Shown piece by piece: positions 11,319 through 64,000 of a stretch of 64,000 nucleotides of DNA. How positions within the stretch are numbered: position 1 is the stretch's first letter; the number at the start of each line of letters is the position of its first letter. The stretch lies in IMG/VR virus record IMGVR_UViG_3300021091_000015. One strand, 5' to 3'. The translations under genes were made by a program, and so were the position numbers. Source of the stretch: a virus. The notes beneath the pieces were generated by a model. It saw only the letters and a list, made by a program, of their open reading frames with translations. It ran no database searches and was not told where the DNA came from.

Positions 11319-11373
11319 TTTTTTTATTTTATAAATATCTTTATTTTACTATAAATATATCATGTTTATAAAA

Positions 11374-51180: not shown

Positions 51181-51204
51181 ATTAAGATTACAAGATATTT
51201 ATAA

Positions 51205-51309
51205 TTAGAATCAAATGGTTTGGTCGCCATGAGATGATAATTAGACTAAAAACGAAAGGAGGTATTCCACATCTCGGCAAAGGGGTCTGAATTGACCTCT
51301 TTGTTCGTT
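51205..51309 (+). ncRNA. Candidate late sRNA A
   Basis: ATATTTAT at 51195-51202; no ORF; hairpins ATGGT/GCCAT, GAGGT/ATCTC, CAAAGGGGTC/GACCTCTTTG. Confidence 0.55.
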
Positions 51310-51444
51310 ATATACCTCTCAAAGACAATATCGAGGACAAAGTGTCCTTAAAACAAAAAACCCACCAATTGGTGGGTTTATTATTTAATTAGTAACACCT
51401 CCATACTTTTCCCATTATCTCCATATTTATAATAAAGTAATAAA

Positions 51445-51966
51445 ATGGGAAAATGTATTTGTTCAAGCTGTGGGATTGAATTTGAAAAATCAAATTCTGA
51501 ATTAAATCGTAATAAAAAATTAAATAGACCTAATTTTTGTTCAAGAAATTGTGTTGGTATTAACAATACTAAAAATTTATTAAACGTTAAAAATCGATAC
51601 GATATACAAAGACACTCAAATAATAGAGGTGGGGAATATTCAAAATTCAAATATCATTTTAGAAATATTAAAAAAAGAAATCAAATTATTGATTTAACTA
51701 TTGAAGATTTGTCTAATCAATGGGTTTTACAAAATGGAATTTGTCCATTCAGTGGTATAAAATTAGAGTTGTCATCATATACCAAAATAAAAAAGAATCC
51801 AATATATTCTGCGTCTTTAGATAGGATAGATAATAAATTAGGTTATGTTAAAGGAAATGTTAGATGGGTTTCAAGGGCAATTAATTGGATGAAAAATGAA
51901 ATGGATGATGCGTATATTCATGAATTAATTAGTATTTTAATTAAAAATAAAAGGGAACCCTTTTGA
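51445..51966 (+). CDS. Free-standing HNH homing endonuclease-like protein
   Basis: N-terminal CxxC...FCS..C; SLDRIDNKLGYVKGNVRWVS..IN.MK. Confidence 0.8.
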   Translation: MGKCICSSCGIEFEKSNSELNRNKKLNRPNFCSRNCVGINNTKNLLNVKNRYDIQRHSNNRGGEYSKFKYHFRNIKKRNQIIDLTIEDLSNQWVLQNGICPFSGIKLELSSYTKIKKNPIYSASLDRIDNKLGYVKGNVRWVSRAINWMKNEMDDAYIHELISILIKNKREPF

Positions 51967-51980: not shown

Positions 51981-52556
51981 TGGAGGTGGCGGGTTTCGAC
52001 AATTATTGGACTATATCATCATCTCAACGAGATGTCGGACGCTAATGTGGTATTACGATAGAAGCGTCTATCACCCACTAGTCTCTGCACCTTCCTGTTC
52101 CTATCAGGCTTGGCTCAGGATTATCTAAAAGACTTCCCCTGAGTTCATCCGATTTTCGACATATCTCACGATATGAAGGGGCTCGATTAAAAACCCGCGT
52201 CTTGCTCGCAATACAATAAATGGACTACACGTTTAGGACAGTATTTTCTAATACTCCGAAATTCACAATTCCCTTATTTTAAAGTGGTTCGGTTTACTGA
52301 GAACTAATCTTCCACTTTGTTTCTTTTAGGATAGAAACCACACCCTACAAGGACTTCTGTTCCAAGGTTATCTGTCCGTCGACCCGTTAGTTACAACCAA
52401 TTAGGCTGCAACTTTAGAAGTCGCAAGAAGACCTGCTACTTCCATTTGGTTATAAACGTTGCCGTTTAAAATTTACCACCGTGGATTAAAGTCGTAGATG
52501 ACATCCGACTACGTGCCCATTTACCATATCAACGCCAATCAATTCCATACACCCCC
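51981..52556 (-). ncRNA. ssrA: tmRNA (intron-containing); tag (A)GNVYNQMEVAGLLATSKVAA at 52463-52401
   Basis: 5' GGGGGTG pairs with 3' CACCTCC-A, giving G3.U70; T-arm GCGGG-TTCGAAA-CCCGC after splicing; tag ORF ends AA-stop; TATCTTTG promoter at 52575-52582. Confidence 0.92.
52000..52192 (-). mobile_element. Group I intron (IC3-like, no ORF) in the tmRNA T-loop
   Basis: Core motifs AATCCTGAGCCAAG, GGTGCAGAGACT, GATATAGTCC; P1 GGGU/GCCC with U.G at the 5' splice site; terminal G; P10 UCGA. Confidence 0.9.
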
Positions 52557-52583
52557 ATAAGTCAAAGAACAAGACAAAGATAG

Positions 52584-53303
52584 TTAATTTTCTTCGTCTA
52601 TATAATTTATTGTAAATATACCATCATTTTCGATTAAATCAAAAACTAATGGTTTATTTATTGGTCGATACCTTTCTGTACAAGTTGATGCGTTAGCAAA
52701 TACTGTATCGCCAATCATTGCAACACCATATGCACCATGTATGTGACCAAAAACATGTAAAAGTGGTTTTAAAACTTCAACACGCTCTCTTAAAAGTTCA
52801 CATCCGACCTGTAAATTATTGGGTGTAAAATCTCTAATTCCATGTGGTGGACCATGTGTTATTAAGATATCGGTATTATTTGGGATTGAGTCCCATTTTT
52901 CTTTTAACACCTCACCGTTTCTTGGTAAATTAAATGCCCAATCAAAAAATTCAGGTTGCCATGGAGAACCATAAATTTTTATTGGTCTTGAGAATTCTGA
53001 ACTAATAATTTCCAACTCACCATCTTCCAAATAAGTAACATTATTTTCTGTGAGAATTGATGGGTCTATGTAAAGATTTAACCATGTTGGTTTTCTTTGA
53101 AACGCAAAATCGTGGTTACCTGCAATGAAAATTTTATGGGTAAATCCTTGTATATTTTGAAACCAATTAATAAAATCACGAACATCATTTTGTCGTCCGA
53201 CATTTGTGCAATCTCCTGAGTGTATCAAAATATCTCCCTGTGGTATGTTATACAACATACCATTGTGTAAAGAGTGGGTGTCAGAAATACATACTATTCT
53301 CAT
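52584..53303 (-). CDS. Calcineurin-like metallophosphoesterase (MPPED/239FB-like)
   Basis: SDTH, HSGD, AGNHD, THGPP, GHIH. Confidence 0.85.
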   Translation of the reverse strand: MRIVCISDTHSLHNGMLYNIPQGDILIHSGDCTNVGRQNDVRDFINWFQNIQGFTHKIFIAGNHDFAFQRKPTWLNLYIDPSILTENNVTYLEDGELEIISSEFSRPIKIYGSPWQPEFFDWAFNLPRNGEVLKEKWDSIPNNTDILITHGPPHGIRDFTPNNLQVGCELLRERVEVLKPLLHVFGHIHGAYGVAMIGDTVFANASTCTERYRPINKPLVFDLIENDGIFTINYIDEEN

Positions 53304-53419
53304 ATTTGTAAATATATCAAAAAATATGTTTAAAAAAGAAGGGGTTAGTCACCCAACCCCTTTTTAGGACGACCGGTTTCTCGGTTCGACTCCACCACTT
53401 GGTTTAAAAAACCAAGAAA

Positions 53420-53866
53420 TTACTTTTCGTTAAGTAACTCCGTGATTGCTTCCAATTCCATTTGTACTCTTATCTCGGGTGAAATTAATGAATTCAAACG
53501 AGATTCAATTTCAGAAAGTTCTTTACGTTTTTCTTGAATTAAAATTTGATTTACTCTTGTTTGAAAATCATCTTTCCATTCATCGACAGTAAATCCTAAC
53601 CATGTGAATTTGTAGTTTACGCCAAGTTCTTTGGCTGCGGTTTCGGATTTATCTTTTCTTTCCATCAGAAATGCGTACATCTCTACGATTTTACGTACAT
53701 CTGTGATAGTTGGAATTGATGTCCTGTCATGTGCGGAATTCGCTGAATAACCAAAGTTACCGCTGGTTTTCCAACAAGGTCTTTCAGCTTTTTCAATTGC
53801 TAATTTTTTACTTTGAACTAAATCGAATAGTTCTTTTACTTTCTGGTCAGTTGTTTTTGTTGCCAT
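53420..53866 (-). CDS. Hypothetical coiled-coil protein
   Basis: Start moved to the ATG at 53866 (MATKTT), because the longer call overlaps RNA repeat 1. Confidence 0.65.
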   Translation of the reverse strand: MATKTTDQKVKELFDLVQSKKLAIEKAERPCWKTSGNFGYSANSAHDRTSIPTITDVRKIVEMYAFLMERKDKSETAAKELGVNYKFTWLGFTVDEWKDDFQTRVNQILIQEKRKELSEIESRLNSLISPEIRVQMELEAITELLNEK

Positions 53867-53907
53867 AATTGTTGTTTTTATGTTATTTATTTTGTTGTTT
53901 TTAAAAA

Positions 53908-54326
53908 ATGGAAACTGTGTCAATAATTGTTTTGATTATCGGTCAAAGTAGAAATAACTGAACACATATCCATGTGTGTTTTAAAAGTGGAAAGACTACA
54001 ACTAATTTTTGATTTTTTGCTTAAAATTTAGAAGTAAGTTGATAGATAGCCACTCAATATGATTGACGGAAAAAGTACGGGTAATGTAACATATAATTGT
54101 TATAGAAGGGGGGACATTAGTCCCCTAGCAGAAGTAACCCAATACATAGCCGTCTAAGAAGTTATGTGGAAATTGTGTGTCTGGTTTTCGTATCTGATAG
54201 TTGTTTGTTAGAAGTAAGACGTTTGCATTGATACTTTTGTCACCGCTAAGGACCAAAACAGAACCACTCCGTGGTTTGATGTGATGGTCAGTTGACTATC
54301 CTCTCAATGGCTCACATAGCCACATA
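53908..54326 (-). ncRNA. Tandem array of four structured RNA repeats (53908-53973, 53986-54054, 54065-54154, 54163-54326)
   Basis: Each unit: stem-GG-CTAT-3bp-bulge-5bp-TACTTCT-variable loop-stems-TTT-CC, with compensatory stem changes; boxA-like GTTCTTTGA at 54334-54342. Confidence 0.75.
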
Positions 54327-54354
54327 TAATATTTCAAAGAACTAATGGGTGAGT

Positions 54355-56427
54355 TTAGACACCCATCAATTTACCTGTCTCTTCATAAGAGTAACAGAAG
54401 TCCTCGTACTTGAAATGTGTATCCACATTCTCGTCAAGGGTAACTTGTTTTCCTCGACCTTCTACGTGTAGAAGAATAAGGTCATAAACACTTACTTTTG
54501 GTAATTCAGCGTATTGTTGAATTACTTTAAAGGTGTTATTGAAGTCGCTCCTCGCGGTTACAAAACCACTTGAATCAATGTCCAACATGATGTACTCTTT
54601 GGTTTCTAAGTCAATAATTGCAATCAAAGTGTTTGACGACTCAGATTCTAATGATTGACAATTTGAAATTGTCTCAGGTAACCATGTCGTGTTTGATTCA
54701 GGATGTTCTCTCTCCATGATACCAAAGGATGTTTCAAGTGAACTTAAACTACCGCCATTGAAGTTTCTTACGTCAATAACCGCGTACTTGAATCCACGAT
54801 TTAATCCATCTTGAATATCGATGTCGATGTACTCCGCACAAGGACCCTGTCTATGTCTCACGTCCCCCGAGTGAACAGAGTTACCAACTCTCAAGTTACT
54901 GAAAGATAGTACTTCTGACACTTTTTCACCAACAAACGTAACACTTAAATCCAAGTCTTCAGAACCACGTTTATCCATCCAATGAATAAATGGTCTGATA
55001 ACTTTTGCATCGGGGTTATCGAGCGGAACTCGTTGACCTCTGATGGTAGGTTTAGTTGAGAAGTTCATACTTCTCATGTTGGTTGGTAAAGGAATCTTTT
55101 TTAATTCCTCATCAATCCAACAGTTACCTAAAGAATCCATTACCGAAAACTTATCTCTAAGAGTTTCGAATAATTTAGAGTGGATGGTTTCCACAATCTC
55201 TTTAGGGATTGCTTGTAGTGATGGTAATTCGGTACGTTTTCTCGCTCCTTTAATCATAACTGACCTATTTGTTTTAGGTTCAGTACGACCTTCAAAGTGA
55301 GTGTAAACCTCAAACAATACTTTGTTTGATGTACCTTTTACCGCTTCTCCGAATAATTTCATAATTGTTTCAATATCTTGTGGATATGTACGAACCAACC
55401 AATCTAATCGACGAGAGAATTCACCGGGTCTTTGAGACAATACTCTCAAACCATTCTCCAAACTTTTTTTGAATCCCTCATCTACAAGGGAGAACCAAGA
55501 TTTTACTTTCTCGTTTCTAATCTTGTTGAACGCATCAAAAGATTTAGGGAATTGGTTTTTATACTCACCCGGGTGTAAGATTTCACCTAAACGAACCCAT
55601 CGTTGGTCTCTTAAAACCATTTCTCTTGGGTCACAGTTTGTGTTCTCAAGTAAATTCAAGATGTACTTCCTCTCTTTACGAGTGAATTTCTTGAATTTAA
55701 ACTTTTCTCTTTCGGGATTTACTCCTTTATCGGTAGACCATCTGTTTAGTCTAATTTCCTTTTCAGGAACTTTAGGTAAACTAATGTCTCCACCTGAAAG
55801 ATGAACGGCTATTCTTAACACGTCGGTTGAAGTTTTTACTGGAAGTCCCTCGATTCCCATTCCCGCAAGTGTACACAAATTCTCTTTGAAAGGAATTGTG
55901 TCAGGGAAAATCAATGTTTCACCACTTGATACAAACCACTTAACAATCTCAAGGTCTTGGGGGGTTAATGATGTGTTGATTGACACTAAGTCAGTGAAAA
56001 TTTTTGAGAATCTATCAGAGGTACCATACTTAATCAAGTTGTATTTAATTTTTTCAAACTTGATTTCTTTTTCGTAAGTGTGGGTTGATGGTTCCCATTG
56101 ACCATTACTCCAATAATGCAAGATTGCGTTCATGTATAATTCGAAGTCGGACATAACCATCACTTCTTGTGGGAAATTCTTATATAGGGGTTGGTAATTA
56201 CGATTACCACCCATTACATTTTTCAAATGATTCAATACTTCATGATTGAAGTTTTGAATAAACGATAATTCTGATTTGGACAACGCGAAGAAAGCATCTT
56301 CGTCTAACATGTAACCCCATTGCATTAAGTGGGATTGAACGGTTGCTACCGCGATTCTATTATCTTGACCGTCGTTTGGTGAACAGACCAAACCTTTTTG
56401 AAACGCAACTAAATTCCTTGTTGTCAT
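54355..56427 (-). CDS. Large alpha-helical protein with C-terminal TerD-like domain
   Basis: C-terminal FIHW...DLDLS...HSGD...AEYID TerD-type motifs; N-terminal PLY..FP, FKEN, TDVLR, HPGEY, RPGEF; TATCTTTG at 56464-56471. Confidence 0.7.
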   Translation of the reverse strand: MTTRNLVAFQKGLVCSPNDGQDNRIAVATVQSHLMQWGYMLDEDAFFALSKSELSFIQNFNHEVLNHLKNVMGGNRNYQPLYKNFPQEVMVMSDFELYMNAILHYWSNGQWEPSTHTYEKEIKFEKIKYNLIKYGTSDRFSKIFTDLVSINTSLTPQDLEIVKWFVSSGETLIFPDTIPFKENLCTLAGMGIEGLPVKTSTDVLRIAVHLSGGDISLPKVPEKEIRLNRWSTDKGVNPEREKFKFKKFTRKERKYILNLLENTNCDPREMVLRDQRWVRLGEILHPGEYKNQFPKSFDAFNKIRNEKVKSWFSLVDEGFKKSLENGLRVLSQRPGEFSRRLDWLVRTYPQDIETIMKLFGEAVKGTSNKVLFEVYTHFEGRTEPKTNRSVMIKGARKRTELPSLQAIPKEIVETIHSKLFETLRDKFSVMDSLGNCWIDEELKKIPLPTNMRSMNFSTKPTIRGQRVPLDNPDAKVIRPFIHWMDKRGSEDLDLSVTFVGEKVSEVLSFSNLRVGNSVHSGDVRHRQGPCAEYIDIDIQDGLNRGFKYAVIDVRNFNGGSLSSLETSFGIMEREHPESNTTWLPETISNCQSLESESSNTLIAIIDLETKEYIMLDIDSSGFVTARSDFNNTFKVIQQYAELPKVSVYDLILLHVEGRGKQVTLDENVDTHFKYEDFCYSYEETGKLMGV

Positions 56428-56524
56428 AATGTCGTATTAATGTTGTAATTTATTGTAATGGTACAAAGATATATAAACTTTTTGTAAAAACAAAGTTTTT
56501 TTTAAAAAAAATTAAAAAAAATTT

Positions 56525-56986
56525 TTAAATCCTCACCAAATGATTCGCGCTGTAGGTCATCATAGCCCCCGCGTGTTTGTATCTCACTTTATACCCCATA
56601 CCCTCAACCAAACCAACGGCTTGTCTTAAAACCTTATTTGATTTGTATTTTGGGTCAGGATTAAGGTCAATATCAATCCAAGTGACTTTTGGTAAACCAT
56701 TGTTTCTCAAGTGTTCAGCAACTTCAACCGCCTTCCACACTTCAGTCATTAGTCTACTTGACGTATCTTTTTCAAATGGTATTGTGTCTTTAGTACACAA
56801 TACGTGAGCACCCTTACCTTTTGTGTAAAGAGCAATAACCACCCCGTAAACTGTTTTAGAATTACTAAATGATTGTGAATCCGAACCAATCAATATTTCA
56901 ATATCGTTTTTATCCACCAAATAATCTTTGATGTAACCTATAACGTCGGTTATGAGTGTTCCGTGCAATGTTCTAAATTTTTTCAT
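56525..56986 (-). CDS. RNase H-like YkuK (DUF458) family protein
   Basis: IGSDSQ, RL..E...AVE.A, IDIDLNP....SN. Confidence 0.75.
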   Translation of the reverse strand: MKKFRTLHGTLITDVIGYIKDYLVDKNDIEILIGSDSQSFSNSKTVYGVVIALYTKGKGAHVLCTKDTIPFEKDTSSRLMTEVWKAVEVAEHLRNNGLPKVTWIDIDLNPDPKYKSNKVLRQAVGLVEGMGYKVRYKHAGAMMTYSANHLVRI

Positions 56987-57013
56987 ACCATTTTATAATA
57001 TATAAGTACTCCG

Positions 57014-57051
57014 CGGAAGGTGAGGGGCTCGAACCCTTGCGACTGTAACAC
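57014..57051 (-). pseudogene. 3' fragment of a tRNA (Ser-like acceptor)
   Basis: AAGGG-TTCGAGC-CCCT T-arm followed by CACCTTCC-G; no 5' half found. Confidence 0.55.
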
Positions 57052-57231
57052 CTTGTTATGTGTAGTAATTTTGTGGGGTTGATGTGGGTTGGTGAAAATT
57101 ATTACACATAACTACCAAGTAGTCTTTAATATAACCGATAATGTCGGTTATACGATATTCGCTTAAAAGGTAGACCCGGGCCCAACAAGCCGTTTTCGTA
57201 CGCAACGGAAGGGCCCTTTTTAAGGTCTACT

Positions 57232-57306
57232 TGGAGCGGGAAATGGGATTTGAACCCACGGCCCTCGCCTTGGCAAGGCGATGCTCTACCACTGAGCTAC
57301 TCCCGC
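57232..57306 (-). tRNA. tRNA-Gly(GCC), CCA encoded
   Basis: GCGGGAGTAGCTCAGTGGTAGAGC...CTTGCCAAG...GTTCAAATC...CCCGCTCCA. Confidence 0.95.
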
Positions 57307-57375
57307 TTGGAGTGGTCTTCCCATAACGATTTCCTTAATAGGTTTTGGAGTTAAGGGTACGACCACATGTTGATA

Positions 57376-57828
57376 TTATTTTTGATTTTTTTGTTGCCAC
57401 TCATAGGACACCGTATCTTCGGTAATTGGACCACCTTTTGCCCATGTTTTACATGTTCTTGCGGAGTGACATTTAAAGTGATGCATCCAACAGTACCCTA
57501 ATCTACCACTATCATCAGAAACCGAACCTGGCATACACTCATCCATTCTTGGTGATATATCAAATGCTACACAATTACCACATAGTGATTTTTTAGCAGC
57601 TTCAACAGTGGTGTTCCAATCAGATGCAACCATTTCCCAATAATCACCGGGTTCGTCAATATTAAGTGGACCATATTTTATATAATCCGCTTTTATTGAC
57701 TTGTCTCTATTATTGGTATTTAACTCTAAATCTTGAGTTGCTTTAGGACATTCCATTTCCGCTTCGGATAGGAGTCTTTTGTTTAATCTTTCGATAAGTT
57801 GTTTTTTCTTTTTTAATTCAATTCCCAT
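57376..57828 (-). CDS. Cys/His-rich late protein with LLSE leader
   Basis: CGNC, CWMHHFKCHSARTC; ATATTTAT at 57843 (minus). Confidence 0.65.
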   Translation of the reverse strand: MGIELKKKKQLIERLNKRLLSEAEMECPKATQDLELNTNNRDKSIKADYIKYGPLNIDEPGDYWEMVASDWNTTVEAAKKSLCGNCVAFDISPRMDECMPGSVSDDSGRLGYCWMHHFKCHSARTCKTWAKGGPITEDTVSYEWQQKNQK

Positions 57829-57854
57829 GATTTTTTTATTATATAAATATCTCG

Positions 57855-57928
57855 TGGTCCCTCACGGGCTTGAACCGTGGACCTACCGATTATGAGTCGG
57901 GTGCTCTGACCAACTGAGCTAAGGGACC
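57855..57928 (-). tRNA. tRNA-CAT, most like Ile2 (lysidine-modified, reads AUA)
   Basis: GGTCCCTTAGCTCAG...CCGACTCATAATCGG; lacks initiator features. Confidence 0.85.
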
Positions 57929-58079
57929 GTATCGTCGAAATAACCGATAAAATGAATTATCGTTTAAATCGGCGATATTAGTTTTTTACTTTGAATTTCA
58001 TCTGTGTGATAACAGCATTTGCCACCTTTTTATGTCCCGAGGGATTCATATGACATGTCCAATTACCACAATCTGTACG

Positions 58080-58258
58080 AACAAAAGTTCAATCGTTCAT
58101 ATGTCATTTTTGATTTTCACCATTTAAATCCTTCTGAAAAAGATGTTGATTGGTCAAAACTCAGATTGAAGTCTGATGAATCAATCAAAAATGAACTTAA
58201 TAAATGTGTTCTTTTATGTTCAAATTGTCATAGAAAGAGACATCATTTAAATTCGTAG
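58080..58258 (+). pseudogene. Truncated HNH endonuclease remnant
   Basis: FDFHHLNP...CVLLCSNCHRKRH C-terminal HNH with no credible N-terminus; antisense within the tRNA cluster. Confidence 0.6.
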
Positions 58259-58327
58259 GCCCACCAAGATTCGAACTTGGAATATCTCATTAGAAGTGAG
58301 AGGGTATATCCCTTTACCTATGGGCCC
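58256..58327 (-). tRNA. tRNA-Arg(TCT)
   Basis: GGGCCCA acceptor; TCTCA-CTTCTAA-TGAGA; GTTCGAATC. Confidence 0.9.
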
Positions 58328-58391
58328 ATTAAAATGGAAATTTCCTTCTACGATAACCGTAGTTGTAGATTTGAGGAGTTTTCCATTTTTG

Positions 58392-58477
58392 TACCGCTGG
58401 CCGGAATCGAACCGGCACGGACATTACTGTCCAAGAAATTTTAAGTCTCTCTTGTCTACCTGTTTCAACACAGCGGC
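58392..58477 (-). tRNA. tRNA-Leu(TAA)
   Basis: GCCGCTG acceptor; CTTAAAA loop; long variable arm GGACAG/TGTCC; GTTCGATTC. Confidence 0.9.
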
Positions 58478-58558
58478 ATCAATTTCACCAACATGTCAAA
58501 GAACAAATTCAGTTCAATCTGAACTATTGTACAATTATACAAAAAAAAGACTTAAAAT

Positions 58559-58593
58559 AAAAAACCCGAACTTCAAAAATAAAAGTTCGGGTT
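58559..58593 (-). terminator. Terminator of the putative attenuator
   Basis: AACCCGAACTTT...GAAGTTCGGGTT-TTTATTTT. Confidence 0.8.
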
Positions 58594-58623
58594 CAATTAG
58601 TTAGAGTTTACTCTCAGTATAAC

Positions 58624-58725
58624 TTACAACTTAAAATCCGAACTTGGGTTACTTAAATACAAACCTCTCCCATTACCACTTAGCGGGTTGTTTGACGTTT
58701 GTTGTATGTGTACCAAGTTCATCAT
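58624..58725 (-). CDS. Putative 33-aa leader peptide MMNLVHIQQTSNNPLSGNGRGLYLSNPSSDFKL
   Basis: Short ORF carrying alternative pairing segments, upstream of the terminator and tRNAs; ATACTTAT promoter variant upstream. Confidence 0.5.
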   Translation of the reverse strand: MMNLVHIQQTSNNPLSGNGRGLYLSNPSSDFKL

Positions 58726-58762
58726 TGTTTAATAAGTATATACAAATATACAAAAAGTTTTT

Positions 58763-59005
58763 TTAAAATAAATCATCACACCATATTGGTGTCTTCTCTC
58801 CCATGTATGAACCTGACACGTTAAAATCAAAATATTCAACCGCTTCAGTCATGTCCATACCTTGGTCCATGAGAATCTTTAAACACTTTTCAACCGAGTA
58901 AATCAATCTCATAGAGTTTTCATCAATTCCTAATACCGCGGAATCAAATCCATCCGCTATTAAAATTTCCTCATCTGCATATTGTTCTAAAATTTTTTCT
59001 AACAT
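58763..59005 (-). CDS. Conserved phage hypothetical protein
   Basis: ADGFDSAVLG...EAVEYFDFN..G.Y.GEKTP. Confidence 0.65.
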   Translation of the reverse strand: MLEKILEQYADEEILIADGFDSAVLGIDENSMRLIYSVEKCLKILMDQGMDMTEAVEYFDFNVSGSYMGEKTPIWCDDLF

Positions 59006-59060
59006 ATTGTCTTTTTTAGTTGTATCCCTATAGGAAATCGAACCACTCTTTCATCTGTGT

Positions 59061-59146
59061 CGGAGAGAGTAAAATTTGAACCTACGATACTTTGTAGTAC
59101 ACCTAATTTCAAGTCAGATGTAATCGACCAACTTCGCTTCTTATTC
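59061..59146 (-). pseudogene. Degenerate tRNA-Ser(TGA)
   Basis: TCTGA-CTTGAAA-TTAGG anticodon arm, variable arm, GGTTCAAAT and CTCTCCG end; stems mismatched. Confidence 0.6.
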
Positions 59147-59281
59147 ATCTGTTAACTTTTATTATAAATTATAACAAGTAAATTTCATATTTCAAAATGT
59201 TTAAAAAAATATATATAACAATCTTCATTGCCGAGGTATTTATAGTAAACCAAATAAATAAAACTAAACTAAATTACAACT

Positions 59282-59536
59282 ATGAACTTTAAAAAATGGA
59301 TTATTGACCTATTCAAAGATGAAAGAGGGTCAACTTCAATCAAACCGGTAATTGCTCTATTAGGCGCATTATTCCTTTGTGGTACCATGGCTGTAAATTC
59401 TTTTTCTCATGGTGACATTAAACCATCTGAAGAATTAGTAAACGCAGTTATGGTTATTACTGCAATTGGAATGGGTGCAGATACTGTAGACAAGTTCTCA
59501 CATAAAAAGAAATCAGACGACTCAGTATCTGAGTAA
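59282..59536 (+). CDS. Putative 2-TM holin
   Basis: Two TM segments, charged C-terminus; GTATTTAT upstream. Confidence 0.5.
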   Translation: MNFKKWIIDLFKDERGSTSIKPVIALLGALFLCGTMAVNSFSHGDIKPSEELVNAVMVITAIGMGADTVDKFSHKKKSDDSVSE

Positions 59537-59590
59537 GTGATTACGGAGTGATATAACCCGTTTAGGTGATATCAATCAATCATCATCTTA

Positions 59591-59935
59591 TTATTGAATC
59601 TGAAGTATTTTATTGTACGTATCGGTTATTTCAGCACAAGTTTCATAATCTTCGTTACCTTCAAAGAATGGTAGAATATCCCTTACTAAAACAATTGATT
59701 CTTTTCTTTTAAATTTTAACTCAGTTTCCCATTGTAAACCATTTATCTTAGCGCCTAACACTAAAATTACATTGTTTTTATCTTTTCTTTTAAGACTTTT
59801 AAAGAGGTTGACTAACGTCAGATAAATTAGTTCTTTGTTAACATTGTAAAAATCACCAAAGCTATTATAGTCCTGTTGGAGTATTAACTTTTTGATTACG
59901 GTATCGTTTGGTTTTTTAGGTAGTTTTGGTGGCAT
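59591..59935 (-). CDS. Hypothetical protein with C-terminal UVR-like motif
   Basis: NEDYETCAEI. Confidence 0.55.
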   Translation of the reverse strand: MPPKLPKKPNDTVIKKLILQQDYNSFGDFYNVNKELIYLTLVNLFKSLKRKDKNNVILVLGAKINGLQWETELKFKRKESIVLVRDILPFFEGNEDYETCAEITDTYNKILQIQ

Positions 59936-60018
59936 GTCGATTTAATTTTTGGTTCATCACAAATTTGACCAAAAAAATCGACCTATACAAATAAATGAAT
60001 AAATTGTTTAAAAAAAGT

Positions 60019-60429
60019 TTAAACCGTATGGTCCCACTGAACTCTCACACAGTTTTGGGGTAATCTGTGGATATGTCTATAATTATTGATGTACCCCATC
60101 ATATTAGCACTCCCAACCGCGTTGGCTGAATGTACAACCACATCAACAACAGGTTTTCCATCCAACCACTGATTAACTAACCATTTGGTACAGTCCATAC
60201 CTGTTTTCTCGGTGATATTGTCGTAGTTGATTTCGTAGTTTTTAACTACACCGTGTAACCATTCTTTCATTGCGCTATCACCCAAGTCGTGGTCTAAAGA
60301 AATCAACTCAACATTATCTAAACCAATCTCGGTTATCTTTTGAACCAATTCATCATAGGAACGAACCACTACCCAATTTTATTTATCAACGGGGGTTCTT
60401 ACATCATCTAAGTAAATTTTATATTTCAT
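60019..60429 (-). pseudogene. Cyclic-phosphate-processing receiver-domain protein with in-frame TAA at 60379-60381
   Basis: MKYKIYLDDVRTPVDK*NWVVVRSY...ISLDHDLG...TGMD...HSAN..G. Confidence 0.7.
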
Positions 60430-61465
60430 CTTTTTTAAATGGTTTTGTATATGGTGGGTATAATATTTTCCATATTATACTTTTATATTCTTTACCGTCC
60501 AACATATTAAATAATATTGATGGGTGGTTATATCTTTTTGCTAATTCAGCAAACTCGCGTCGGTTACATTCTTTTTGATGTGCCTCAAAATAAGTGTTTC
60601 GTATTTTATTGAATATCCATTGATATTCCTTCTCAATATTTTCATAACGAACCACAAAATCTTTAACAGTTTCTTTCACCCAACTGTTAAACTCATCAGG
60701 TACTTTTTCAAGTAACTCATCAAATGATTTATCTTCTTTAAGGTATTCCCAAATATCTCTACTTGACACATTGGTTAAAATTTTATGTAATCGAACATAC
60801 TCCTCAAATTTAATTTTCATTCTAAAATTTGATGGGTAAAATCTTACAACAAAACCTTCACTGTTTGATGTATTAAGTTTCTTATATGTGTCAAATGTTT
60901 CTTTATTGAAAGTTACCATTGTGCTTCCAACAACGTCTTCTTCCAAAATACCTGATGAATTAAAAATTGCACATGCGGTGTACCAGTTCAATTCACCTTC
61001 AGGGGTTGTTACAGAAAGGAATGTGATTTTTTCACAATTATAATTTACAACAATTCTATTCTCAGGATAAATAATTTCACATAGGTATGTAACCTCTTTT
61101 ACAAAATTATTTAAATTGTATTTTGATTTTAAAATTTCAAAACCACGGATAGACTGTTCAGAAGTAAATGAACCTCTTGTTGACATAATCCATTCCCCAT
61201 CGTAAAAGAATAGAATACCAAGAGAACCATCCATTTTATCTTGAATGTGAACATATTCACTGTCCCATGGAATTAAGTCCTTATCAATAACTTCCTCATA
61301 GTTAAAGAACTTACCAAACGGTTCTGCAATTACATCGCCTTTTGAATTGGTAACGAGTCCACGACATTGCATAGTAATATCGTCCCACAAAGATTCGTAT
61401 TGTACTCTTGGGGTATAATTCCATATGCACAAATCTTTTGTGGGGTGAGTTTGTTTTATTAACAA
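60419..61465 (-). CDS. RNA ligase, T4 Rnl1-like (true start may be near 61501)
   Basis: CRGL, KFFN, KMDGSLG (motif I), EII, EGFVV, RMKIK. Confidence 0.85.
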   Translation of the reverse strand: MLIKQTHPTKDLCIWNYTPRVQYESLWDDITMQCRGLVTNSKGDVIAEPFGKFFNYEEVIDKDLIPWDSEYVHIQDKMDGSLGILFFYDGEWIMSTRGSFTSEQSIRGFEILKSKYNLNNFVKEVTYLCEIIYPENRIVVNYNCEKITFLSVTTPEGELNWYTACAIFNSSGILEEDVVGSTMVTFNKETFDTYKKLNTSNSEGFVVRFYPSNFRMKIKFEEYVRLHKILTNVSSRDIWEYLKEDKSFDELLEKVPDEFNSWVKETVKDFVVRYENIEKEYQWIFNKIRNTYFEAHQKECNRREFAELAKRYNHPSILFNMLDGKEYKSIIWKILYPPYTKPFKKDEI

Positions 61466-61497
61466 ACCATCCTCATGGTATTTTTGTAACCTAACTA

Positions 61498-61911
61498 TCA
61501 GAGTTTTACTTCAAAACGATTTTTCATAATCTCTAATTTGTCAGAGGGTACTCCGTGGACATTTTCACCACCGTGTCTGTTTTCAACAACAATAGTGTGA
61601 ATTCGATATCCGTATCTTTTCGCCATTTCAAAATATGGTTCCATTTCCCATTCTTGGGTAAACGTATTTGACACAACAACTCTTACGACGCTATTCATCA
61701 TCAAATTTGCACACCTTTGTTGGCAGTCGTTATGAGCTTCCCTTAATTTTATTGGGTCAAAATTGTAGTTACCTTCCTTGTCTGTAAAGAAATCATCCGC
61801 CGACAATGGTTTCATTGGATTATTTGGGGTATAAAGAATGACCTCACCTAAAGTGGATTTACCCGAGCCGGGTAAACCCCTAACTAATATCAAATCTTTT
61901 GTATATTCCAT
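61498..61911 (-). CDS. Polynucleotide-kinase-like P-loop protein (AAA_33)
   Basis: RGLPGSGKST, SADD, SNT, HGVP; TATATTTG at 61930-61937. Confidence 0.8.
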   Translation of the reverse strand: MEYTKDLILVRGLPGSGKSTLGEVILYTPNNPMKPLSADDFFTDKEGNYNFDPIKLREAHNDCQQRCANLMMNSVVRVVVSNTFTQEWEMEPYFEMAKRYGYRIHTIVVENRHGGENVHGVPSDKLEIMKNRFEVKL

Positions 61912-61965
61912 GGTAAAATAGATTTATCGCAAATATAAATAATAATTTTTAGAATACCAAAAAAA

Positions 61966-62062
61966 TAAAAACCCCCAACAGAGAGTCGGGGGTTTGTGGT
62001 CATTTTGTGGTTTCAACACCACAGACTATAAAACGAAAGGAAATCGGCAAAGATATCCTGTG
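61966..62062 (-). ncRNA. Candidate sRNA B
   Basis: Minus-strand ATATTTAT at 62068-62075; TGTGGT/ACCACA hairpin; terminator CCCCCGAC/GTTGGGGG plus T tract; no ORF. Confidence 0.5.
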
Positions 62063-62102
62063 TGAATATAAATATATATGTTTTTTTAAAAAGTATGAAT
62101 AT

Positions 62103-64000
62103 TTACACCCTTTTTTTAAAAATTTTTATTTCACCGTCTTTAAATTTTAAATTAATGGAATCATTCTCCTTAATTTCGCCTTTTAAGATTGAATCACTTA
62201 AATAATCTTCACACATATTTTGGATGATTCTTTTAACTGGTCTTGCACCAAAATCTTCTTGAATATTAAGTTCCGATATTCTCTCCACAATTGTCTTATC
62301 AAAAGAAACTTTATAATTTTTTTCTTTTAATCTAACAGACAACTTATTTAATTCAATTTCAATAATCTTTTTAATTACATCTTTATCTAACGAATTAAAA
62401 CTGATTATGTCGTCTACTCGATTCAAAAACTCAGGGTTAAAGTGTTGTTTTAATGATTTTTGAACGATTGATTTTTTAACCTCAAAGTTTTGTGATTCTG
62501 AAGATGATGAACTAAAACCAACACCCTTACCAAATTCAGATACTTTTTTTGCACCAATATTGGATGTCATGATTACTATAGTGTTTGTAAAGTTTACTTT
62601 TCTTCCAAACGAATCGGTTAAATGTCCTTCATCCAAAATTTGAAGTAAGATATTGAAAACGTCTTTGTGTGCTTTTTCAACCTCATCGAACAATACCACA
62701 GAAAATGGATTATTTTTAATCTTCTCAGTAAGTTGGCCTCCTTCATCATAACCAACATAACCTGGAGGTGAACCAATTAATTTTGCCACGTTGTGTTTTT
62801 CCATGTATTCACTCATATCAACACGAATTACTTTTTCGGAGTCTCCGAAAAGTAGTTCAGCAATCGATTTTGCGAGATATGTTTTACCAACACCAGTTGA
62901 ACCTAAAAATATAAAAGAACCTATTGGTTTATTTGTATCTTTAATACCAACCCTATTTCTTCTAATTGATTTGGAAATTATTGAAATAGCCTCGTCTTGA
63001 CCAATTACTTTAGATTTTAATTTTTCTTCTAAGTTCAAAAGATTTGCGGTCTCTGTATCATCAATCTTAGAGAGAGGTACACCTGTAATTTGTGAAATCA
63101 TTTCATATACATCTGCAACCGTTACGGGTGTTTTATTGTCTTTTTGTTTGTCTAACCACTTCTTTTTTTCATCATTTAATTTACTCAGTAATTTTCTTTC
63201 TTCATCTCTTAATTTAGCCGCTTGTTCATAGTTTTGACTTTTTACAACTTCTATCTTCCTATTTTTTAAATCATCAGATTCCTTTTTTAGTTTTTCAATA
63301 ATCTCAGGAATTTTGGTATTTATTTTTTTTTCTGAACCCAATTCATCCATCACGTCAATTGCTTTATCGGGAAACTGACGGTCTGTGATAAATCTTGATG
63401 ACAAATTCACGATAGTTTCAAAAACCTCCGGTTCATAAAATACTTTGTGAAAATTTTGATATGAATCTTTTAAATTTTTTAAAATTTGAACTGTTTCTTC
63501 CTTACTTGGTTCTTTCAAAATTATTTTTTGAAATCTTCTAACTAATGCACCATCTTTCTCGATGTGTTTTTTAAATTCATCAAATGTTGTCGCCCCAATA
63601 CATTGAATTTCTCCTCGAGCTAATGCGGGTTTCATAATATTAGCGGCGTCCATTGACCCGCTAGCGTTGCCAGCACCAACCATTGTGTGTATTTCATCAA
63701 TAAACACAATTACATTAGGTTCATTCTGTATTTCGTTTAGAACTGCTTTAATACGTTCTTCAAACTGACCTCTGTATTTTGTACCAGCCACCAAAGATGT
63801 TAAATCTAATGATACAACTCGTTTGTCTAAAAGATTTGATGGACAATCTCCTTTTACAATCATCTGAGCGAGTTTCTCAACTAAAGCCGATTTACCCACA
63901 CCCGCGTCACCAATTATCACTACGTTGTTTTTCTTTTTTCTAGATAATATCTGTGCAATTCTTTTAACCTCACCATCTCTCCCAATTATTGGGTCAATTT
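62103..64000 (-). CDS. clpC: ClpC-type AAA+ unfoldase, 5'-truncated by the window edge
   Basis: DPIIGR, GDAGVGKS, GTKYRGQFEER, UVR segment QNYEQAAKLRD, GSTGVGKT, GARP; frame is open to the window end. Confidence 0.92.
   Translation of the reverse strand, partial: IDPIIGRDGEVKRIAQILSRKKKNNVVIIGDAGVGKSALVEKLAQMIVKGDCPSNLLDKRVVSLDLTSLVAGTKYRGQFEERIKAVLNEIQNEPNVIVFIDEIHTMVGAGNASGSMDAANIMKPALARGEIQCIGATTFDEFKKHIEKDGALVRRFQKIILKEPSKEETVQILKNLKDSYQNFHKVFYEPEVFETIVNLSSRFITDRQFPDKAIDVMDELGSEKKINTKIPEIIEKLKKESDDLKNRKIEVVKSQNYEQAAKLRDEERKLLSKLNDEKKKWLDKQKDNKTPVTVADVYEMISQITGVPLSKIDDTETANLLNLEEKLKSKVIGQDEAISIISKSIRRNRVGIKDTNKPIGSFIFLGSTGVGKTYLAKSIAELLFGDSEKVIRVDMSEYMEKHNVAKLIGSPPGYVGYDEGGQLTEKIKNNPFSVVLFDEVEKAHKDVFNILLQILDEGHLTDSFGRKVNFTNTIVIMTSNIGAKKVSEFGKGVGFSSSSSESQNFEVKKSIVQKSLKQHFNPEFLNRVDDIISFNSLDKDVIKKIIEIELNKLSVRLKEKNYKVSFDKTIVERISELNIQEDFGARPVKRIIQNMCEDYLSDSILKGEIKENDSINLKFKDGEIKIFKKRV

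Follow-up and report, generated by a model that had tools for sequence, protein, structure and literature searches.

The window analysed here is a stretch of 64,000 nucleotides from a large AT-rich phage (IMG/VR record IMGVR_UViG_3300021091_000015), which is a giant or jumbo freshwater phage of Bacteroidota from a bS21-encoding lineage. Among its relatives, IMG/VR contigs with lengths of up to 310 kb, four of the five large ones tested encode ribosomal protein bS21. The window contains the genes of two non-coding RNAs, called A (51207 to about 51310, plus strand) and B (62062 to about 61965, minus strand). The two genes are convergent and lie 10.8 kb apart in the window and about 17.8 kb apart in relative G014. 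As separate loci that do not overlap, they are not a cis-antisense pair.

A is adjoined by an HNH endonuclease gene (51445-51966, plus strand) and by a tmRNA gene (51985-52556, minus strand; ARAGORN, Rfam) that is split by a group I intron; the genes downstream of A differ among relatives. Near B, on the minus strand, are a ClpB/ClpC-type ATPase (62103-63998), a Pnk-like kinase (61498-61911) and an RNA ligase (60419-61465), and there are four tRNA genes around B. The kinase and the ligase, together with a metallophosphoesterase (52584-53303, minus strand), make up an RNA-repair style set, which along with the ATPase flanks the tRNA genes and sRNA B. The tmRNA intron sits in the T-loop (RF00028 match at 51990-52202, 68.8 bits) and is the reason why the tmRNA model scores 35.4 bits, under its cut-off. 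Contigs from RNA runs are almost identical to exon 1 of the tmRNA (2 differences in 187 nt), diverge from the genome at precisely position 52192 and read T-loop-like letters from there on, which fits either splicing or intron-less relatives. ARAGORN and Rfam find no tRNA-like or tmRNA piece at A and B, and the tmRNA of the phage is a one-piece, intron-containing molecule. The 288-kb close relative G010 carries a freshwater-1 RNA (RF02979, 84.7 bits; L153:2562-2623, minus strand) within an array of about 24 tRNA genes; the Rfam search gives no match to this RNA in the window.

The core of sRNA A (51207-51321, plus strand) is described by covariance model R2, which scores it at 128 bits, finds a single copy in the window and detects 22 homologues elsewhere with scores of 67-128 bits. 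Along the plus strand, the members of this family consist of GATATTTAT, a hairpin P1 with the loop TTTGGTCR, GATAA, an A-rich arm, a 12-mer, a hairpin P2 and a U-rich tail. P1 (51210-51235, plus strand) covaries, with changes on both sides in five of its nine pairs; its top three pairs are nearly invariant and its loop (51219-51226) is invariant. The A-rich arm (51243-51260, plus strand), which contains block 2, is single-stranded and complementary to positions 62041-62023 of B. Of the 22 family members, 18 share the core 12-mer (51250-51261) unchanged. P2 (51275-51307, plus strand) is a terminator-like stem followed by the U-rich tail, and its 5' strand holds block 3. It has 13 pairs, four of them with compensatory changes and many of them G-U, and 100% of its cells are paired; in the structure alignment of A as a whole 91% of cells are paired and nine pairs have changed on both sides. 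A bidirectional terminator hairpin (51358-51379, both strands) lies downstream of A and is shared with only some relatives.

sRNA B (61953-62062, minus strand; covariance model R1, 124 bits) is also present in a single copy in the window and has 22 homologues elsewhere, at 85-124 bits. The family has the following order on the minus strand: the box ATATATATTTATAT, a 5' hairpin, a U-rich arm, a hairpin with a GTTGAA loop, AAAATGACC and a strong intrinsic terminator. The loop and closing pairs of hairpin 1 (62038-62059, minus strand), at 62052-62044, are the complement of block 3 of A. The following pyrimidine-rich arm (62023-62041, minus strand) is partly anti-Shine-Dalgarno-like, a partial look-alike of the 16S rRNA tail, and is complementary to A at 51243-51260. 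Hairpin 2 (62007-62022, minus strand) shows compensatory changes in three of its five pairs. Both helices are paired in 95-100% of cells, and one pair flips from A-U to U-A. The single strand AAAATGACC (61998-62006, minus strand) is nearly invariant. The intrinsic terminator (61969-61995) is found on the minus strand only and has a 10-pair stem with four compensatory pairs. Across 20 sequences, 96% of cells of the B structure are paired, compared with 87% in shuffles, and eight pairs have changed on both sides.

Neither RNA appears to be coding. The ORFs of A do not exceed 5 codons and none of them is conserved. B has no conserved ORF: its sole ATG, at 62003-62001, opens a frame of fewer than 40 codons, and relatives with the reading AGACC lack this ATG. 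Searches of Rfam 15, both at the gathering threshold and with E up to 10, assign no family to A or to B and return only terminator-driven sub-threshold noise.

Both genes are preceded by the box ATATTTAT, which behaves as the phage's own promoter box. The copy ahead of A (51195-51202, plus strand) is invariant in 16 of 16 A-family members, and the copy ahead of B (62068-62075, minus strand) is kept as ATATATATTTATAT in all members of the B family. There are 25 copies of ATATTTAT in the window, compared with 14.9 +/- 3.7 expected. For most copies, an ORF on the same strand starts 15-25 nt downstream, an arrangement that implies very short leaders; examples are found at 934, 3618, 4914, 6054, 20504, 46167 and 51423 on the plus strand and at 11331, 19214, 26556 and 57843 on the minus strand. 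The original prediction had noted as a caveat that one end of the B repeat overlaps a promoter-like TATCTTTG site. The site is present (62055-62048, minus strand), but its TA varies among relatives, which rules it out as a Bacteroidota -7 promoter of B.

The assignment of A to the plus strand and of B to the minus strand, as predicted, is borne out by the orientation of the promoter boxes, by the terminators and by strand-specific G-U pairs in the covarying helices, which would be A.C mismatches on the opposite strand. With the sense strands opposed, the two transcripts are complementary and not paralogous in sense. Available RNA data are neutral on the expression of A and B, speaking neither for nor against it: in 24 riverine metatranscriptome runs 6-12% of the words of 52101-62100 are present, and in four riverine runs the contigs, which carry no strand information, cover the tmRNA and a gene for a 690-aa protein and almost nothing of A and B. 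No other stretch comes near the coverage of that protein gene (phrog_33734; 54355-56427, minus strand) in the four runs, where contigs that are 90-99% alike reach summed depths of 50-650.

The repeats linking the two loci, at 51243-51282 and 62023-62052, had been read correctly to the base. In A, the 18-nt block 2 (51243-51260, plus strand) is followed by a 13-nt insert (51261-51273, plus strand) and by the 9-nt block 3 (51274-51282, plus strand). In B, a copy of the 18-mer with one additional T (62023-62041), the spacer AA (62042-62043) and an identical copy of the 9-mer (62044-62052) are found. As DNA, the copies are direct repeats, both being on the plus strand. A third co-linear block, TGGTC, is newly found here and was not part of the original prediction. 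This block 1 is located at 51222-51226 in A and at 61999-62003 in B, 23-25 nt upstream of the 18-mer at both loci; a pairing of AAAATGACC of B with the P1 loop of A through it is speculative.

Within the single window, the likeness of A and B is borderline when compared with chance. When all 38 intergenic regions are aligned locally in a composition-aware way, it takes rank 12 among 1406 comparisons, an equal score is reached in two of ten shuffled sets, and the 10-mer and the 9-mer, each taken singly, are as frequent as expected by chance. A scan of IMG/VR for the two-block pattern yields two conserved families, the B type, with a spacer of 2 nt, at 22 loci and the A type, with a spacer of 12-17 nt, at at least 12 loci. 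These comparative data establish that the likeness is real.

The two RNAs tend to occur together. In a count in which all contigs are fragments, B is also present on eight of the ten A-bearing contigs and A on five of the ten B-bearing ones. A was not found in the close relatives G010 and G015, both contigs of which break within the tRNA array before the expected position of A; these misses are not evidence that A is absent, since the breaks fall between B and the expected A site. More distant A-like elements, scoring 30-36 bits, are present at L169:1501-1610 (minus strand) in relative G021 and at L174:1440-1560 (minus strand) in G022, a complete phage genome of 308 kb. Such an element retains a AGAAAGGGGAG-type purine tract together with the terminal hairpin, and in G022 it directly follows a stop codon and has no ATATTTAT box. 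No B is detectable in G021 or in the complete G022; the best candidate for a second B-like site in G022 lies within a coding repeat and was rejected. A-like elements lacking a detectable B suggest that A works without B, and that A is the older of the two and B a later addition, perhaps originating as a partial copy of A that was later read from the other strand.

The central part of A resembles an extended Shine-Dalgarno sequence. The element (51254-51268, plus strand) is the complement of the 3' tail of Bacteroidia 16S rRNA. Extended by the base that follows it, the core 12-mer ends in 10 nt that are exactly complementary to ACCUCCUUUCU, the 16S tail oligo used for Flavobacterium johnsoniae by Jha et al. 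(PMC7797042). The duplex of the A element with this oligo has a calculated energy of -16.4 kcal/mol. Positions 51262-51268 presumably extend the match beyond the 11 nt of the published tail, giving 15 nt if the tail sequence that we take to follow is right. A does not look like the leader of an rpsU-like gene, as no ATG, GTG or TTG is found at Shine-Dalgarno spacing (5-10 nt) after the element in the window. The first 7 nt of the element also belong to the complement of B block 2, so that bound B would cover half of it.

In the ribosomes of Bacteroidia, the 16S tail is hidden under bS21, bS18 and bS6 (PMC7797042, PMC9976891). Essentially only rpsU, the gene of bS21, has an extended Shine-Dalgarno sequence in Flavobacteriales, and it is used only by ribosomes without bS21 (PMC9976891), the ones on which the anti-Shine-Dalgarno sequence is free. 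The bS21 genes of the phages related to the window (L155-L158, in G015, G005, G010 and G011) encode proteins of 63-66 aa, and their upstream regions are A-rich and have no Shine-Dalgarno sequence; in G010 the bS21 gene is located about 11 kb from sRNA B. A search of genome contigs with the phage bS21 gave only two Kaistella loci, at which rpsU has the alternative Shine-Dalgarno sequence UGAGA and no A-like leader.

The energetics of pairing were calculated for the window sequences. The whole A/B duplex has an energy of -53.8 kcal/mol, compared with -29.8 +/- 4.3 for shuffled B, and cofolding gives a heterodimer with an advantage of 15.6 kcal/mol over the two monomers. The predicted heterodimer forms via block 2, and P1, P2 and the second hairpin of B stay intact. 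For block 2, a duplex energy of -21.4 kcal/mol and opening costs of 5.7 (A) and 6.6 (B) leave a net gain of about -9 kcal/mol, and the mean unpaired probability of the arms is 0.75 in A and 0.57 in B. For block 3, the duplex energy is -12.9 kcal/mol and the opening costs are 11.9 (A) and 3.8 (B), with a net of about +3 kcal/mol; the block has an unpaired probability of 0.15 in A. The original prediction had envisaged a pairing of about 27 bp around a three-way junction, with the 16S-complementary segment looped out of it. The calculations do not favor such a junction, because the 9-nt block is the 5' strand of the fully paired P2, the opening of which (+11.9 kcal/mol) nearly offsets the duplex (-12.9 kcal/mol). 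With block 3 locked in P2, only the 18-bp block 2 duplex is predicted to form between the mature RNAs, and on these energies it should form. Nor is the 16S-complementary segment looped out: the 18-bp block overlaps 51254-51260, and the segment would thus be half covered.

Covariation between A and B, proposed as a check of the pairing, was followed in 17 cognate pairs, each taken from one contig. Across these 17 genomes the complementarity is kept and partly covaries, with exceptions. In block 3, 15 pairs give 135 position-by-pair cells, of which 121 are Watson-Crick, 8 are G-U and 6 are mismatches. Cognate partners are more complementary than non-cognate ones in block 2 (permutation p = 0.004), in block 3 (p = 0.024) and in the variable linker taken without the invariant core (p = 0.0009), all three values ignoring phylogeny; the independent supporting events number about four to five. 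A G-C pair of block 3 is compensated to A-U in the pairs L131/L071 and L152/L067, and L007/L145 has the intermediate state, G-U. An additional A in A is matched by an additional U in B in L152/L067. In L038/L161 both partners carry other letters in the distal 4-5 nt of block 2 (GACU/AGUC to CUGG/CCAG), and L017/L162 likewise has a distal replacement on both sides (AACGA/UCGUU).

There are also changes that are not compensated. The TCAACAAAG clade of A (L128, L148, L149) has one or two A.C mismatches; in the closest relatives of the window, B occurs in the variants CCUCUCG and CCUCACG, which create mismatches in the middle of block 2; and L162 has an additional U without an additional A. Whenever block 3 of A has changed, the P2 stem of A itself has a compensating change, so that part of the agreement between A and B may reflect common ancestry and not selection for pairing. 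Eight of the 14 differences between cognate copies of block 3 keep the RNA pair as G-U; counted by lineage, about four events are compatible with pairing and two to three are disruptive, which is not significant. In block 1, the loop of A is invariant and the tail of B nearly so, and the two show no covariation (p = 0.33).

The observations described above suggest that B is probably a trans-antisense partner of A, an anti-sRNA that masks or remodels it. Of the sponge or antitoxin pair originally proposed, the kept complementarity favors the sponge-like half, and the antitoxin half finds no toxin ORF to act on. A type I toxin-antitoxin system was rejected, as there is no small toxic peptide gene, the ORFs of A being 5 codons or shorter and the frame of B unconserved. 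The strands and the complementarity of the original prediction have stood, as has, in part, the covariation that it named as a check; the 27-bp junction, the loop-out and the antitoxin have not.

It is possible to outline how such a partner would operate. We infer that both RNAs are transcribed and that they pair in vivo. A and B would be made as separate RNAs, transcribed convergently from phage ATATTTAT promoters. The contiguous 5' region of B (62052-62023) is complementary to two stretches of A that flank and half cover its invariant extended Shine-Dalgarno-like element. Pairing would start between the single-stranded arms, through 16-18 bp of block 2. Its extension into block 3, the 5' strand of P2, would take place only during the synthesis of A or by strand invasion. 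In nascent A, block 2 would emerge first and block 3 13 nt later, at a time when the 3' strand of P2 is not yet made; the complements of the two blocks in B are only 2 nt apart, an arrangement that would suit co-transcriptional pairing. Two outcomes can be envisaged. Bound B might block the site of A that is complementary to the 16S tail. Alternatively, B might act as an anti-terminator, preventing P2 from forming and giving rise to a longer A isoform, which would end at the terminator hairpin at 51358-51379 that also serves the minus strand. In the minimum-energy fold of the longer A of the window, a segment at about 51312-51319 folds back on the Shine-Dalgarno-like element.

Other explanations of the likeness between A and B have to be weighed against the anti-sRNA reading. 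B might be a real sRNA directed to other targets, namely Shine-Dalgarno-like sequences of mRNAs and above all the extended one of host rpsU. Its pyrimidine arm would then be a copy of part of the 16S 3' tail, matching A since A has the same Shine-Dalgarno-like sequence. Depending on the clade, the arm reads UCCUUUCG, CCUCUCG or ACCUCUUCG, all of which resemble ACCUCCUUUCU; rpsU stands alone among Flavobacteriales genes in having an extended Shine-Dalgarno sequence (PMC9976891), and the phage bS21 genes have none. However, the complementarity runs 8-10 nt past the Shine-Dalgarno-like core into a lineage-specific linker that covaries with B, which a host mRNA target would not explain, and we regard this explanation as unlikely. 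It is also conceivable that A and B are the two pieces of one stable RNA, possibly a ribonucleoprotein scaffold, and act as a unit rather than as regulator and target. Their common promoter class means that they are probably made simultaneously, and the three co-linear complementary blocks extend over about 75 nt with the full duplex energy given above. Against a permanent assembly of this kind, for which we see a rather small chance, block 1 shows no covariation, folding of the monomers leaves both it and block 3 weak or occluded, and the more distant phages have A-like RNAs without B.

The likeness could instead have nothing to do with pairing. If B arose by partial duplication of A and is read from the other strand, the shared blocks might be a relic, kept only for local roles, as terminator stem in A and as hairpin loop in B, with no interaction of the RNAs. 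The borderline statistics within the window, the explanation of A block 3 by its own stem and the several uncompensated changes would all agree with such an origin; but cognate pairs are more complementary than non-cognate pairs even in the variable linker, the replaced distal blocks of two divergent lineages are still complementary, and A and B co-occur, so that a relic is as improbable as the two-piece RNA. The blocks might also be DNA sites, such as operators or other protein-binding sites, that are present in the same orientation and by chance in two unrelated transcription units. On the DNA the copies are indeed direct repeats, and coincident changes would be expected from a shift in the specificity of a binding protein as well. 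This is the least probable of the explanations and a very unlikely one: the blocks form part of RNA helices or of accessible arms for which covariation is seen at the RNA level, the spacer of 2 nt in B and of 12-17 nt in A is unsuited to a bipartite protein site, and 8 of the 14 block 3 differences keep a G-U pair, this last point not being significant by lineage.

With B taken as the anti-sRNA of A, a further function can be proposed for the pair, as an unlikely possibility. A would be a decoy of the extended Shine-Dalgarno sequence of host rpsU, and B its antidote or timer, the two forming an RNA-only switch that acts on ribosome specialization in Bacteroidota. A would target ribosomes lacking bS21 and capture their liberated 16S 3' tail. 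The autoregulatory synthesis of host bS21 would then be shut off, and the phage bS21, which is made without a Shine-Dalgarno sequence, would take over the ribosome. B, being an anti-Shine-Dalgarno look-alike, would cover half of the A site and could also prevent the terminator of A from forming.

To our knowledge, base-pairing RNA regulation in Bacteroidota and their large phages is almost unexplored. We know of no virulent-type phage with genes for an sRNA and for an antisense RNA directed against it, none having been found in the literature searched, and this search found no published description of the A/B pair. The sequence carried by A is one that host rpsU otherwise has to itself, in organisms with ribosomes that are normally blind to Shine-Dalgarno sequences. 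If A and B act in the proposed way, the exploitation or rewiring by phages of anti-Shine-Dalgarno sequestration and ribosome heterogeneity, a question of current interest, can be tested directly in the existing Flavobacterium johnsoniae assays. The covariance models R1 and R2 allow the A and B RNAs to be annotated in metagenomic phage genomes.

The phages considered here are of the same kind as the bS21-encoding freshwater Bacteroidota phages described by Chen et al. in 2022 (PMC9723584), as bS21 is found in four of five relatives. The A/B pair is absent from that description, the text of which contains no occurrence of tmRNA, small RNAs or non-coding RNAs. The system of rpsU, with its extended Shine-Dalgarno sequence and bS21 autoregulation (PMC7797042, PMC9976891), is similar in that A carries 10-11 nt of 16S-tail complement. 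In contrast to rpsU, A has no start codon or ORF after the element and sits in a phage sRNA; its binding to the ribosome is putative, and this phage lineage encodes its own bS21 without a Shine-Dalgarno sequence.

The conserved complementarity to the seed region of a distant sRNA is shared with the sRNA sponges AgvB and AsxR of EHEC prophages, which are directed to GcvB and FnrS, and with SroC, which is directed to GcvB (PMC4474525). As in these sponges, pairing would titrate or remodel the partner, here putatively. Unlike the sponges, both partners are encoded in one lytic-type jumbo phage, under a common promoter class, and the host phylum is Bacteroidota, where Hfq-type sRNA biology is not established. 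Furthermore, the complementarity of A and B is split into co-linear blocks that reach the terminator stem of the partner, and the downstream target of the pair is only putative.

In the countertranscript attenuation of pT181, pIP501 and pAMbeta1, the terminator hairpin forms or not depending on the antisense RNA, which binds the nascent RNA further upstream. The kissing pairs RNAI/RNAII and CopA/CopT make their first contact via accessible single strands or loops. Antisense RNAs of both kinds are cis-encoded and fully complementary, and termination is induced. The A and B genes, however, are 10.8 kb apart and their complementarity is partial, and pairing of B with block 3 would prevent, rather than induce, the formation of the P2 hairpin.
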